A DNA stretch of 64,000 bases from Escherichia coli (GTDB lineage Bacteria; Pseudomonadota; Gammaproteobacteria; Enterobacterales; Enterobacteriaceae), in the NCBI RefSeq assembly GCF_003018255.1, contig NZ_CP027440.1. One strand, 5' to 3'. A program made the position numbers and the translations under genes. The notes beneath the pieces are model-generated. The model was not told the origin of the DNA, made no database searches, and saw nothing but the letters and a program-made list of their open reading frames with translations. The first letter of the stretch is position 1. Every line of letters starts with the position of its first letter. Positions 22,266-53,179 of this stretch are shown piece after piece.

Positions 22266-22297
22266 TGCCGGATGCGGCGTGAATGCCTTATCCGGCC
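22266..22297. repeat. single REP element after alr
   Basis: GCCGGATGCGGCGTGAATGCCTTATCCGGCC. Confidence 0.85.
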
Positions 22298-22492
22298 AAT
22301 AAAATCTTACCAATTCAATAAGTTGATATTCTTTCATGCTCTTATAAAGGTCGTGCATCTGGCGGATGTACGTTTGTCATGAGTCTCACTCTGTTGCTAA
22401 TTGCCATTCGCCCCTGAACATCCTCTCGATCTTCGCCTTCTTCCGGTTTATTGTGTTTTAACCACCTGCCCGTAAACCTGGAGAACCATCGC

Positions 22493-32865: not shown

Positions 32866-33330
32866 ATGGAAAAGAAATTACCCCGCATTAAAGCGCTGCT
32901 AACCCCCGGCGAAGTGGCAAAACGCAGCGGTGTGGCGGTATCGGCGCTGCATTTCTATGAAAGCAAAGGGTTGATTAGCAGTATCCGTAATAGTGGCAAT
33001 CAGCGGCGATATAAACGTGATGTGTTGCGATATGTCGCAATCATCAAAATTGCTCAGCGTATTGGCATTCCGCTGGCGACCATTCGTGAAGCATTTGGCG
33101 TGTTGCCCGAAGGGCATACATTAAGTGCGAAAGAGTGGAAACAGCTTTCGTCCCAATGGCGAGAAGAGTTGGATCGGCGCATTCATACCTTAGTGGCGCT
33201 GCGTGACGAGCTGGACGGATGTATTGGTTGTGGCTGCCTTTCGCGCAGTGATTGCCCATTGCGTAACCCGGGCGACCGCTTAGGAGAAGAAGGCACAGGC
33301 GCACGCTTGCTGGAAGATGAACAAAACTAA
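32866..33330 (+). CDS. soxR: MerR-family redox sensor SoxR ([2Fe-2S] cluster CIGCGC motif)
   Basis: 154 aa ORF recognised as SoxR. Confidence 0.95.
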
Positions 33331-33360
33331 AGCGCCACAAGGGCGCTTTAGTTTGTTTTC
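33329..33360. terminator. intrinsic terminator after soxR (AAAGCGCC-ACAA-GGGCGCTTT then T-rich)
   Basis: Inverted repeat overlapping soxR stop. Confidence 0.75.
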
Positions 33361-33470
33361 CGGTCTTTGTCTTTCTCTCTATCCCGCTGGTACACAGGAG
33401 GGTTTCCCCCGACGTCAACACACCTCATTCGAGCACGTGGTGGAGGTTCCGGTTGGTGTTGATGCTTTAA
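33330..33470 (-). ncRNA. possible RyjA-like small RNA locus (placement by synteny only)
   Basis: In K-12 as I recall, sRNA RyjA is encoded opposite to and just downstream of soxR; no sequence-level confirmation possible here. Confidence 0.3.
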
Positions 33471-39145: not shown

Positions 39146-39420
<275 letters not shown>

Positions 39421-39449
39421 GTTACCGACTCGCATCGGGCAATTGTGGG

Positions 39450-48517: not shown

Positions 48518-49831
48518 ATGAAAAATATAAAATTCAGCCTGGCCTGGCAGATTCTGTTTGCTATGGTGCTGGGCATTCTCCTGGGAAGCTACCTGCACTA
48601 CCATAGCGACAGCCGCGACTGGCTGGTCGTCAATTTGCTCTCTCCGGCGGGTGATATCTTCATCCATCTGATCAAAATGATTGTTGTGCCGATTGTGATC
48701 TCCACGCTGGTGGTGGGTATCGCGGGTGTTGGTGATGCCAAACAGCTCGGGCGTATTGGCGCGAAAACCATTATTTACTTCGAGGTGATCACCACCGTCG
48801 CCATCATTTTGGGGATCACTCTGGCGAACGTCTTCCAGCCCGGTGCCGGGGTGGATATGTCGCAGCTGGCGACCGTCGATATCTCGAAATATCAGAGCAC
48901 TACGGAAGCGGTACAAAGCAGTTCCCACGGCATTATGGGCACGATTTTGTCGCTGGTGCCGACGAACATTGTGGCGTCGATGGCGAAAGGCGAAATGCTG
49001 CCGATCATCTTCTTCTCGGTGCTGTTTGGTCTGGGGCTTTCATCCCTGCCCGCGACGCATCGTGAACCGCTGGTGACCGTTTTCCGCTCCATCTCTGAAA
49101 CCATGTTTAAAGTGACTCACATGGTGATGCGTTATGCGCCGGTGGGTGTGTTTGCGCTGATTGCGGTGACGGTGGCTAACTTTGGTTTCTCGTCTCTGTG
49201 GCCACTGGCGAAACTGGTGCTGCTGGTGCATTTCGCCATTCTGTTCTTCGCGCTGGTAGTGCTGGGAATTGTGGCGCGCCTGTGCGGGTTAAGCGTCTGG
49301 ATCCTGATTCGTATTCTGAAAGATGAGCTGATTCTGGCGTACTCCACTGCCAGCTCTGAAAGCGTGCTGCCGCGAATTATTGAGAAGATGGAAGCCTACG
49401 GAGCACCGGCGTCGATCACCAGTTTCGTGGTGCCGACCGGTTACTCTTTTAACCTTGATGGTTCGACGCTGTATCAAAGTATTGCCGCTATTTTCATCGC
49501 GCAGTTGTATGGCATTGACCTGTCCATCTGGCAGGAAATCATTCTGGTGCTGACGCTGATGGTGACCTCGAAAGGGATTGCTGGCGTGCCGGGCGTGTCG
49601 TTTGTGGTGTTGCTGGCAACGCTGGGTAGCGTAGGTATTCCGCTGGAAGGTCTGGCGTTTATTGCCGGTGTTGACCGTATCCTCGACATGGCGCGTACTG
49701 CGCTGAACGTGGTGGGTAATGCGCTGGCGGTGCTGGTGATTGCCAAGTGGGAACACAAATTTGACCGTAAGAAAGCGCTGGCTTATGAGCGCGAAGTGCT
49801 GGGCAAATTTGATAAAACTGCGGATCAATAA
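48518..49831 (+). CDS. gltP: proton/glutamate-aspartate symporter GltP
   Basis: 437 aa ORF recognised as GltP. Confidence 0.93.
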   Translation: MKNIKFSLAWQILFAMVLGILLGSYLHYHSDSRDWLVVNLLSPAGDIFIHLIKMIVVPIVISTLVVGIAGVGDAKQLGRIGAKTIIYFEVITTVAIILGITLANVFQPGAGVDMSQLATVDISKYQSTTEAVQSSSHGIMGTILSLVPTNIVASMAKGEMLPIIFFSVLFGLGLSSLPATHREPLVTVFRSISETMFKVTHMVMRYAPVGVFALIAVTVANFGFSSLWPLAKLVLLVHFAILFFALVVLGIVARLCGLSVWILIRILKDELILAYSTASSESVLPRIIEKMEAYGAPASITSFVVPTGYSFNLDGSTLYQSIAAIFIAQLYGIDLSIWQEIILVLTLMVTSKGIAGVPGVSFVVLLATLGSVGIPLEGLAFIAGVDRILDMARTALNVVGNALAVLVIAKWEHKFDRKKALAYEREVLGKFDKTADQ

Positions 49832-49840
49832 TTGAAGATT

Positions 49841-50240
49841 GCCGGGGATATCCACCCGGCAATATGTGGATGCCTGATGCGACGCTTACCGCGTCTTATC
49901 AGGCCTACGCCAGACTGCGCAATAGCTTGATTTAGGGTGATTTTGTAGGTCGGATAAGGCGTTTACGCCGCATCCGACATCAATATCTGATGCGACGCTT
50001 GCCGCGTCTTATCAGGCCTACGCCAGACTGCGCAATAGCTTGATTTAGGGTGATTTTGTAGGTCGGATAAGGCGTTTACGCCGCATCCGACATCAATATC
50101 TGATGCGACGCTTACCGCGTCTTATCAGGCCTACGCCAGACTGCGCAATAGCCTGATTTAGCGTGATTTTGTAGGTCGGATAAGGCGTTTACGCCGCATC
50201 CGACATCAATGCCTGATGCGACGCTTACCGCGTCTTATCA
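49841..50240. repeat. BIME array: about 3.5 tandem 113-bp units of paired REP elements between gltP and yjcO
   Basis: TGATGCGACGCTT recurs at 49875, 49988, 50101, 50214. Confidence 0.92.
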
Positions 50241-50248
50241 GGCCTACC

Positions 50249-50938
50249 TTAACCGTTAGTTAATTTTTCAAACTCTTCACACCCGGTATCAAACCCTTCC
50301 ATACAGCTCAGATTTAACCAGTGCAGCGCCTTTTGTTTGTTCTTCTCGATAAAACCTTCTTCACCGTTTAAGAACATCATTCCCGCCCAGTACTCGGAAT
50401 AACCGGTTCGGGAAATCGCAGAGCTGCGTTTGAAATACCAGGTTGCCTTGTCATCGTCGGCCTTAATGCCCACGCCGTTGGCGTAAATCAAACCAAGCAG
50501 CATTTGGGCATCGACGGCAGAGTCGTTCTCCAGATCTTCCGAGGCGTTTTCTAACAGCGAAATTGCCTTTGGATAATCCGGTTTACCCGCTTGCGTATTT
50601 ACCAGAATATGCGCCAGCGTTACTTCACCTTCTTTACTGCCCGCTTGCGCCGCTTTCTCTGCAAGAACTTTTGCTTGTGGATAGTCCAGACTGACCGGAT
50701 TGGTGATTTTGATCTGCGCTAACAGCGCGCAGGCATCAGCATCACCGCTGTCGGCGGCTTTCTGTGCCCAATATTCGGCTTTGCTCAAATCGCCGGAGCT
50801 AAACCAGCTGTCGGCAAGAAAATATTGTGCGCGTCGGTCCCCTGCCTCTGCTGCCTTTAAATACTGGCTGCCAGGCTCGGAGTCGTTCGCGTGGGCAAAG
50901 AATGTCAAAAACAACATCAATGCGATAATTTTTTTCAT
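50249..50938 (-). CDS. yjcO: Sel1-repeat periplasmic protein YjcO
   Basis: 229 aa ORF with signal peptide. Confidence 0.85.
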   Translation of the reverse strand: MKKIIALMLFLTFFAHANDSEPGSQYLKAAEAGDRRAQYFLADSWFSSGDLSKAEYWAQKAADSGDADACALLAQIKITNPVSLDYPQAKVLAEKAAQAGSKEGEVTLAHILVNTQAGKPDYPKAISLLENASEDLENDSAVDAQMLLGLIYANGVGIKADDDKATWYFKRSSAISRTGYSEYWAGMMFLNGEEGFIEKNKQKALHWLNLSCMEGFDTGCEEFEKLTNG

Positions 50939-51031: not shown

Positions 51032-53179
51032 TTACGCCAGTGCCGCTTCGCGCAGGCGAGTTTTCAACTTGTTGTACTCGTCAATCACGTACTGCTCGGC
51101 GGCGCGCTGATCGGCGATCGGCTCGACGCGCACGGCGCAGTATTTGTATTCCGGCGTTTTCGTAATCGGGCTTAAGTTTTCGGTCACCAGCTCGTTACAG
51201 GCACCAATCCACCACTGGTAGGTCATGTAAATCGCCCCTTTGTTCGGACGATCGCTGACCTGCGCACGGGTGATAATTTTGCCTTTACGCGAGTGCACCC
51301 AAACCAATGCCTCATCTTCAATACCCAGACGTTTGGCGTCTTCGGTATTGATTTGTGCGTAGCCAGGTTCATCAGCCAGCGCCGCCAGTGCCGCACAGTT
51401 ACCGGTCATCGAACGGCAAGAGTAGTGACCAACTTCACGCACCGTTGACAGTACCATCGGGTATTCGTCGGTGAGTTTGTCGATTGGCGCTACCCAGTCG
51501 CAGGTGAAGAACTGCGCCAGACCGTTCGGGGTATCAAACTTCTCTTTAAACAGATAAGAAGTCCCCTGATCGGCATCTGAAGTATCGCGGCAAGGCCACT
51601 GAATGAAGCCCAGTTCGCCCATTTTCTCGTAAGTCGCACCGTAGAAATCCGGGCACAGATGACGCAACTCGTCCCAGATCTCCTGGGTGTTGTTGTAGTG
51701 CATCGGATAACCCATACGAGTGGCAATTTCACTGATGATTTGCCAGTCCGTTTTCAGATCCCACTTCGGCTCAACCGCCTTGAAGAAACGCTGGAAGCCA
51801 CGGTCAGCCGCAGTAAACACGCCTTCATGCTCGCCCCACGACGTTGACGGTAAAATGACATCCGCCGCCGACGCGGTTTTGGTCATAAAGATGTCCTGAA
51901 CGATAACCAGTTCCAGATCTTCAAAGGCTTTACGTACTGCCGACAGTTCCGCGTCAGTTTGCAGCGGATCTTCGCCCATAATGTACGCCGCTCTCACTTC
52001 ACCATGCGCCACGCGGTGCGGCAGCTCGCTGATGCGATAGCCGGTATGAGCAGGCAGGCTTTCCACGCCCCAGGCTTTGGCGAATTTCTCGCGGTTAGCC
52101 GGATCTTTCACGTACTGATAGCCCGGATACGTATCCGGCAGCGCGCCCATATCGCAGGCACCCTGCACGTTGTTCTGACCACGAACCGGGTTTACACCCG
52201 CATGTGGCTTACCGAGGTTACCGGTCAGCATCGCGAGGCTGGTCAGAGAACGCACGGTTTCCACGCCCTGATAGAACTGGGTTACCCCCATGCCCCACAG
52301 GATGGCGGCGCTTTCTGCCTGGGCATACATCCGCGCCGCCTGACGAATCTCACTGGCGCTGACGCCGGTGATATCTTCAACCGACTCCGGCGTGTAGCCT
52401 TCAACGATTTTACGATACTCTTCAAAGCCTTCTGTACGGGAAGCGACGAACGCTTTGTCGTACAGATTTTCTTCAATAATGACATGGCCCATCGCATTCA
52501 ACAGCGCGATGTTCGAGCCGTTTTTCAATGCAATGTGCATGTCAGCAATGCGCGCGGTTTCAATTTTACGCGGATCGCAGACGATAATTTTCGCCCCGTT
52601 ACGTTTAGCGTTAATTACGTGATTCGCCACGATTGGGTGGGAATCCGCCGGGTTATACCCGAAAACGAACACTAAATCGGTATTATCAATTTCGTTAATA
52701 GCATTGCTCATTGCGCCATTACCGACCGATTGGTGCAGACCTGCAACCGATGGGCCGTGTCAGACACGAGCGCAGCAGTCAACGTTATTGGTACCAATAA
52801 CGGCGCGCGCAAATTTTTGCATTACATAGTTGGTTTCGTTACCCGTACCGCGCGAGGAGCCGGTCGTCTGGATGGCATCCGGACCGTACTTCTCTTTGAT
52901 GGCGCTCAGGCGCTCGGCAACGTAATTCAGTGCCTCATCCCAGGAAACAGGTTCGAGTTTGCCGCCACGCTGGCGACGGATCATGGGGGTTTTCAGGCGC
53001 GGGGTCAGGATCTGGGTATCGTTAATGAAGTCCCAGCCATAATAACCCTTCAGACACAGGGTACCCTGGTTGGTTTTCCCCTGCGCTGCCTCCGCCCGGA
53101 CGATTTTGCCGTTATCGACGACCAGGTTGATTTTGCAACCTGATGCGCAATAGGGGCAAACCGTGACGACTTTTTTCAT
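51032..53179 (-). CDS. fdhF: formate dehydrogenase H (selenoprotein; in-frame UGA at 52760-52762 decoded as selenocysteine, codon 140)
   Basis: ORF track splits gene into 139 aa (52760..53179) and 559 aa (51032..52711) pieces in the same frame; combined 715 codons matches FdhF. Confidence 0.93.
52715..52759 (-). other. SECIS stem-loop directly 3' of the fdhF UGA codon (mRNA: CACGGCCCAUCGGUUGCAGGUCUGCACCAAUCGGUCGG)
   Basis: Sequence read on minus strand matches the bacterial fdhF SECIS hairpin as I recall it. Confidence 0.85.

Follow-up and report, generated by a model that had tools for sequence, protein, structure and literature searches.

The window, by which is meant the whole stretch of 64,000 nucleotides of E. 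coli DNA that was analysed, contains the convergent genes gltP and yjcO, separated by a gap of 417 bp that is filled by a tandem array. The product of gltP is identified at equivalog level (NCBIfam NF008440, about 905 bits, E = 4e-273). TRF places the array at 49874-50247, with a period of 113, 3.3 copies, 97% matches, 0 indels and a score of 713, and it is the longest TRF array of the window. A preliminary description of this DNA, which reported a BIME array with a 113-bp period between these two genes, was accurate in its period, its flanks and its REP/BIME identity, as judged by TRF, by typing of the REPs (Z2 33-35/37 and Y 33/35 identical to the references) and by their alternating orientation; but its figure of about 3.5 units is corrected to 3.3 copies (seven REPs, of which four are Z2 and three Y), and its start at 49841 falls inside a separate non-REP hairpin, the array proper beginning at 49871. 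The features of the locus are as follows.

48518-49831, + strand: gltP CDS, glutamate/aspartate:proton symporter, the upstream flank, whose transcript enters the array (ORF, NCBIfam, RefSeq)
49832-49837: spacer of 6 nt between the gltP stop and the non-REP hairpin
49838-49863, + strand: non-REP hairpin with a 9-bp stem (AUUGCCGGG/CCCGGCAAU) and an 8-nt loop (MFE and centroid fold)
49871-50247, unstranded: whole array, Z2-[L-Y-S-Z2]x3, 7 REPs, period 113 (TRF, REP scan, Rfam naRNA4 matches on Y-S-Z2 pairs)
49871-49908, + strand: Z2 REP a, 35/37 identical to the Z2 reference, with ATCAGGCCTAC at 49898-49908
49909-49944, unstranded: L-like linker 1, 36 nt, with IHF-consensus core AATCAAGCTATTG at 49920-49932 (-), a perfect WATCAANNNNTTR
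49945-49979, - strand: Y REP a, variant GTCGGAT...ATCCGAC with tail GTAGGTC, 33/35 identical to the Y reference
49980-49986, unstranded: S linker 1, short head-to-head linker of 7 nt, TCAATAT (sequence)
49987-50021, + strand: Z2 REP b, with G rather than A in the loop (REP typing)
50022-50057, unstranded: L-like linker 2, with a perfect IHF-like core at 50033-50045 (-)
50058-50092, - strand: Y REP b (REP scan and typing)
50093-50099, unstranded: S linker 2, TCAATAT (sequence)
50100-50134, + strand: Z2 REP c (REP scan and typing)
50135-50170, unstranded: L-like linker 3, the common E. coli variant, with core AATCAGGCTATTG at 50146-50158 (-), one mismatch from the IHF consensus
50171-50205, - strand: Y REP c (REP scan and typing)
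50206-50210, unstranded: S linker 3, TCAAT, preceding the last complete Z2
50211-50247, + strand: terminal Z2 REP d, the sole REP remaining in the shortest (n = 0) allele (REP typing)
50249-50938, - strand: yjcO CDS, Sel1/TPR-like repeat protein, the convergent downstream flank (ORF, RefSeq annotation)

Each repeat unit thus runs in the order Z2, 36-nt linker, inverted Y, 7-nt linker. Unit 1 differs from unit 2 by one base (G/A in the Z2 loop) and from unit 3 by four. The REPs are imperfect palindromes, about 35 nt long, that have a GTAG/CTAC foot and follow the Y or Z2 consensus: compared with the published references, the four Z REPs match Z2 at 33-35/37 positions and the three Y REPs each match Y at 33/35, both differences of the Y REPs forming one compensated outer stem pair. 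They are extragenic, the array lying between convergent stop codons, and highly repeated, with 20 REPs in the 64-kb window and medians of 12 matching places per E. coli genome for a full-locus query and 8 for a single 113-bp unit. The Z-REP tail 11-mer ATCAGGCCTAC occurs nine times in the window against an expectation of 0.02, with four of the nine in this array, an excess indicating that the array is not due to chance. Coding potential is rejected, since the ORF list of the window holds no ORF of at least 40 aa inside the array. The feature table of NC_000913.3 carries no repeat_region at gltP-yjcO.

The hairpin that begins 6 nt past the gltP stop is present in every allele examined, including those of other Escherichia species. 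A reading of it as a degenerate REP is ruled out by its identity of 8-15/35 to the REP references, despite a weak, sub-threshold Rfam match; it could act as a barrier at the 3' end or make ribosomes stall. Elsewhere in the window, an fdhF-like ORF lies beyond yjcO at 51032-52711 (-); a SECIS_2 Rfam match (87 bits) is found just upstream of its apparent start, at 52713-52767 (-), formate dehydrogenase H being truncated in the ORF list at the selenocysteine UGA. The Hfq-binding sRNA sraL is recognised at 33323-33463 (-) (Rfam RF01408, 153 bits).

The locus has been encountered before. An oligonucleotide (B319) representing the MG1655 gltP-yjcO BIME is cleaved in vitro by TnpA_REP (RAYT) at four linker sites (Ton-Hoang et al. 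2012, PMC3333891), of which the weak site GACC|TACA corresponds to the unusual Y tail, GTAGGTC, of the window. The same paper reports that tandem BIME number at a given locus differs among E. coli strains and that TnpA_REP recombines BIME substrates in vitro, and its authors propose a model of amplification. The work on B319 and the published variation among strains mean that prior descriptions exist of the element as well as of its class and behaviour: the array is a genuine, ordinary and previously described E. coli REP/BIME cluster, and not a new kind of element.

The variation of the array was surveyed with a flank-only query (700 nt of gltP and 700 nt of yjcO) against 5,426 complete genomes, of which 5,421 were matched and 5,351 had both flanks joined. 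Gap lengths were taken from two evenly spaced samples totalling 118 genomes, and 17 alleles were read base by base. At least 14 length alleles occur among the 118 genomes, ranging from a gap of 78 bp with one REP to one of 940 bp with eight Y REPs. A first series, with complete ends, follows the rule gap = 78 + 113n bp with n = 0-5, in unit steps of 113-114 bp; a second series (gaps of 147-148, 488-490, 563, 713-714, 826-828 and 940 bp) has the first Z2 deleted and the last Z2 internally truncated, contains up to eight Y REPs, and adjoins a different variant of the yjcO protein. The sampled genomes are distributed as follows.

77-78 bp (one of 83), n = 0, single Z2 REP: 49/118 (42%)
189-191 bp, n = 1: 5/118
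303-304 bp, n = 2: 8/118
416-417 bp, n = 3, the window and BL21: 9/118
529-530 bp, n = 4: 16/118
641-643 bp, n = 5: 2/118
177 bp, O157:H7 type: 6/118
147-940 bp, second series: 22/118
1,514 bp, IS1397 insertion: 1/118

The O157:H7 allele (for example in Rafaela_II) consists of one unit with a 13-bp linker deletion that removes the IHF-like core, and has the same length in all six genomes sampled. The array linker is present in 2,814 of the 5,426 genomes, at 1-9 places each, counts that fit a locus-specific linker in 0-9 copies. The copy-number change that the preliminary description expected at this interval is therefore amply evident in the test of unit-number polymorphism, also within K-12, and the strains are not invariant, as would have told against it, but span gaps of 78-940 bp. 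Because about 42% of the sampled genomes retain a single REP, the extra units must be dispensable. In FDAARGOS_1293, which carries an allele of the second series, four ABC-transporter genes (4170-6921) lie between yjcO and the position of fdhF in K-12, so that the right-hand neighbourhood of the array differs between lineages. A 240-nt contig of 0.5x coverage in an assembly of Pyxidicoccus caerfyrddinensis (NZ_JAAIYA010000177.1) consists of two array units with K-12/B-type variants, and is almost certainly E. coli contamination.

The array is also a target of insertion, as the preliminary description had suspected in calling such arrays hotspots for IS elements. IS1397 has a published specificity for the palindromic units of BIMEs, and its insertions at gltP-yjcO were located from one sampled genome and then by a junction query, by which an IS1397 end adjoins the gltP-side REP in about 11 genomes. 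AR_0077 has a 1,432-bp IS, annotated as IS1397 family, inserted with a TTGC duplication into the loop of its only Z2 REP; S51 and seven others have IS1397 in the first Z2 of the n = 1 allele with a duplication of TGG; and in BH100 (NZ_CP024650.2) gltP and part of the array are followed by IS1397 in a Z2 loop, then by a different BIME and araD/polB, an order of sequences indicating that IS1397 copies in two different BIMEs have taken part in a large rearrangement. In BH100 the junction query, which closes with 32 nt of the IS1397 end, matched 37 places, which suggests that this strain has many copies of the element. At least three independent events are represented, all in Z2 loops, with target duplications of 3-4 bp in AR_0077 and S51. 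The terminal inverted repeats of IS1397 were not reported by the repeat finder and are visible by eye and by fuzzy matching. When the flanks are allowed to lie 1.85 rather than 1.2 kb apart, both are joined in 5,389 genomes instead of 5,351, so that about 38 have an insertion-sized gap; roughly 38-70 genomes have an enlarged or disrupted gap. The natural 11-nt target of the IS621 bridge RNA, ATCAGGCCTAC, occurs once per Z2 and thus four times in the array, and gltP-yjcO is not named by gene in the insertion tables of Durrant 2024. Other rearrangements at the locus include a deletion in Ec-U18 from the gltP 3' end into fdhF, which removes the array and yjcO, and the junction of yjcO to ghxP in the O157:H7 strain Vac_07.1; a published ampC amplicon also has a boundary at gltP/yjcO.

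Between gltP and yjcO the array is also present in E. whittamii, with two units, and in the cryptic-clade strain Escherichia sp. E1V33, with five linkers, and it is found in both of the deep allele series of E. coli; taken together, these occurrences indicate that it predates the species E. coli. Among 55 units from 15 arrays, units differ at a mean of 5.5 positions within an array and 7.8 between arrays, a contrast reached by none of 5,000 permutations of the labels, and lineage-specific variants are shared by several units of one array. The GACTGCG variant of the linker, for example, is found in all three units of the window and otherwise, among the alleles examined, only in strain E1, whose two-unit array is equal to that of the window minus one unit of the first type; to judge from these sequences, the lineage of the window has probably gained one unit recently relative to E1. 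The earlier suggestion that high unit identity signals recent expansion is thus right in part, in the probable gain of one unit relative to E1, and does not hold for the array as a whole, which is old and shared with E. whittamii and E1V33: the high identity reflects ongoing duplication, deletion and homogenisation, not one recent expansion.

Gain and loss of units would proceed mainly by replication slippage or by unequal exchange between the 113-bp direct repeats, with single-strand recombination catalysed by TnpA_REP as a possible contributor. That unit number is instead driven mainly by TnpA_REP, cutting and rejoining single-stranded BIME DNA, is a less attractive proposal that seems unlikely but deserves to be taken seriously: the gltP-yjcO oligonucleotide is cut at four linker sites, BIME substrates are recombined in vitro, and the amplification model of Ton-Hoang et al. 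is the same one (PMC3333891). Yet direct repeats of 113 bp that are 96-99% identical are ideal for RecA-independent slippage and unequal exchange, all of the changes are of whole units, as either mechanism predicts, and the main text of PMC3333891 contains no in vivo effect on BIME copy number. The gltP-yjcO interval could be a convenient assay locus at which to separate slippage from RAYT-driven BIME dynamics, and it exemplifies at one place the published behaviours of BIMEs: amplification and contraction, homogenisation, targeting by IS1397, and IS-mediated rearrangement.

At the RNA level, transcripts of the gap fold better than shuffled sequences on both strands (z = -8.2 for the gltP strand and -9.1 for the yjcO strand). 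The reading of the gap as an intrinsic terminator is rejected, no intrinsic-terminator-like site having been found in it. A Rho termination region has been mapped on the + strand of MG1655 at 4,296,545 (Rho score 10.8, p = 3e-17; Adams et al. 2021), in antisense orientation to yjcO and some 110 nt downstream of the array, which fits the published view that Rho terminates past REPs and that exonucleases trim back to the hairpins. The REP hairpins of the array may accordingly be pictured as 3'-exonuclease barriers that would set the stable 3' ends of gltP and yjcO mRNA after termination by Rho. REPs less than 16 nt past a stop codon are reported to lower translation by stalling ribosomes (Liang, Rudd & Deutscher 2015, as described in PMC12306157). 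Such proximity is found in the yjcO mRNA, where the foot of the terminal Z2 is 2 nt and its stem 5 nt after the UAA, and not in that of gltP, whose first REP is 40 nt away; the terminal Z2 might therefore damp translation of yjcO. Alleles of the second series have no REP hairpin abutting the yjcO stop codon.

On the gltP-sense strand, all three Y-S-Z2 modules of the array exceed the gathering score (59.5) of the Rfam family RF02564 (naRNA4), with 68.1, 69.8 and 77.3 bits. These scores could be taken to mean that the array is a cluster of naRNA4-type RNA genes, whose Y-S-Z2 transcripts would bind HU, bridge cruciforms and condense the nucleoid as proposed for REP325, the more so as REP325 has a matching architecture of Y-l-Z2 units with identical spacers and a transcript of the gltP strand traverses the array. 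RF02564, however, matches any Y-S-Z2 pair, giving eight above-threshold matches at four BIMEs in the 64-kb window alone; the experimental claim is limited to REP325; and about 42% of the sampled genomes have no Y-S-Z2 module at gltP-yjcO. An RNA-gene function of this kind is therefore improbable, and the naRNA4 match identifies a repeat family rather than a specific RNA gene.

Two proteins are candidates for binding at the array. Published work finds BIME-2 to be enriched for gyrase cleavage, chiefly at y REPs, and by analogy the Y REPs of the array are likely to be gyrase sites. IHF binds the L linkers of BIME-1 (Ton-Hoang et al. 2012, PMC3333891), and the linkers of the array are possible IHF sites by virtue of their consensus cores, which in most strains contain one or two mismatches. 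Among Sutormin 2018, Prieto 2012 and Kasho 2021, no IHF or gyrase data naming gltP or yjcO were found in the supplementary tables that could be searched. The deletion of the core in O157:H7 means that binding of IHF at the array cannot be essential. With each added unit the space between the convergent genes would acquire a further Y REP, probably a gyrase site, along with another site of the IHF type and two more RNA hairpins, and it is conceivable that unit number tunes supercoiling, insulation or the fate of gltP and yjcO mRNA, making the array a slow contingency-like locus rather than neutral noise. Such tuning is very improbable; if it were real, the allele series with the truncated terminal Z2 would express yjcO differently. 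Overall, the most fitting view of the array is of a repeat that is semi-selfish and tolerated and whose local effects are modest, rather than of a dedicated device.

Variation of the array extends to closely related laboratory strains. K-12-derived assemblies with flanks of 100% identity (60 assemblies among the matches listed) have four gap lengths, corresponding to 1, 2, 4 and 5 units.

641-643 bp: 31 of the 60 K-12 assemblies listed, the MG1655 reference type
530 bp: 27 of the 60, including C600, DH1, DH5alpha, MC4100, BW25113, NCM3722 and several MG1655
304 bp: 1 of the 60, GM4792
191 bp: 1 of the 60, GM4792

The gap of EMG2 is 530 bp. In one of the Y REPs the MG1655 reference NC_000913.3 is short of 2 bp (CG), which makes its gap 641 rather than 643 bp, and this difference matches a recurrent "+CG at 4,296,380" call that has a frequency of 1.0 in resequenced MG1655. 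Several five-unit assemblies reproduce the 2-bp error of the reference and so look reference-guided, which is why part of the K-12 heterogeneity may be an assembly artefact. The broader proposal, that the copy number in the window or much of the polymorphism results from collapse or expansion of the tandem repeat during assembly, can draw further on the disagreement of MG1655-labelled assemblies (530 against 641-643 bp) and on partial-frequency calls within the array in published resequencing papers, but can scarcely be correct, given that independent assemblies, BL21(DE3) among them, share the 416-417-bp allele, that alleles differ in unit sequence as well and track flank haplotype and lineage (O157 at 177 bp; the second series at 147-940), and that the whole gap, at no more than 0.94 kb, is well inside long reads. 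In practice the gltP-yjcO gap behaves as a fast-changing 113-bp minisatellite, from which resequencing obtains spurious variants of partial frequency; it should be masked, or handled as a variable-number tandem repeat, in variant calling and in checks of assembly quality. Beyond this, the practical value of the locus is modest.

The explanation that best accounts for the locus, and very probably the right one, is an atypical BIME in the form of a head-to-tail array of Z2, L-type linker, inverted Y and S between gltP and yjcO, with ongoing turnover of units. BIME-1 is a single-copy combination of y and z1 whose long L linker in many cases has an IHF site, and BIME-2 combines y and z2 in tandem with a short S linker and s/l/r motifs (Ton-Hoang et al. 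2012, PMC3333891); atypical BIMEs, in the Bachellier/Gilson classification as given in PMC3333891, are chimeras of the two and are also tandem. The generic organisation of a BIME is evident in the alternation of Z2(+) and Y(-) and in the conserved linkers of 36 and 7 nt. Like BIME-2, the array has y and z2 REPs, multiple tandem copies and a short S linker, but its tail-to-tail motif is 36 nt long and aligns with the BIME-1 L linker rather than with the 14-nt linker of the BIME-2 in the window. Like BIME-1, it has a 36-nt L-type linker with the IHF consensus WATCAANNNNTTR (perfect in linkers 1 and 2, with one mismatch in linker 3), but its REPs are of the Z2 type and its unit is tandemly repeated. 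It is filed as an atypical BIME because it departs from one defining feature of BIME-2 and from two features of BIME-1; by its sequence, this mixture of BIME-1 and BIME-2 motifs in multiple copies fits an atypical (chimeric) BIME rather than a plain BIME-2. The reference for the L linker was a canonical BIME-1 in the window, which sits between convergent ORFs at 9948-10820 (+) and 10975-13458 (-).

10864-10892: Z1 of the canonical BIME-1
10893-10928: L linker of the canonical BIME-1
10929-10959: Y of the canonical BIME-1

The linker of the array and this L are both 36 nt long and are identical at 17-18/36 positions in an ungapped alignment (shuffle frequency 0.001-0.004); common to both is CGCAAT...TTGA.TT, the IHF core when read on the opposite strand. 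Among the other REPs of the window are a plain BIME-2 array at 39148-39428 (period 91, 3.1 copies, 94% matches, 14-nt tail-to-tail linker and three Rfam naRNA4 matches), Z2/Y pairs at 3926-4004 and 8111-8245, and a solitary Y at 22270-22300. These elements, the gltP-yjcO array and the Y at 10929-10959 account for the 20 REPs counted in 64 kb.

Comparison with known systems leads to the same assignment. The array resembles naRNA4 (RF02564) in having Y-S-Z2 modules above the gathering threshold, whereas that family was defined on REP325 with a role in HU binding and the nucleoid, the likeness of the array being one of covariance-model score. With BIME-1/RIP/RIB it has in common that two inverted REPs are joined at their tails by a 36-nt linker in which the IHF-consensus core holds the same place, but BIME-1/RIP/RIB has Z1 and a single copy where the array has Z2 and is tandemly amplified, and the linkers are only about 50% identical. 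BIME-2 arrays, such as REP325 between yjdM and yjdN and that of the window at 39148-39428, also consist of alternating Y and Z2 REPs in tandem with a short head-to-head linker, lie between convergent genes and match Rfam naRNA4; the difference is in the tail-to-tail linker, which is 36 nt and L-like in the array, giving a period of 113, and an s/l/r motif of about 14 nt in the BIME-2 of the window, giving a period of 91. From atypical BIMEs no difference was found; like them, the array joins the components of BIME-2 (y and z2, S, tandem repetition) to an L-type linker of BIME-1, in a copy number that varies among strains.
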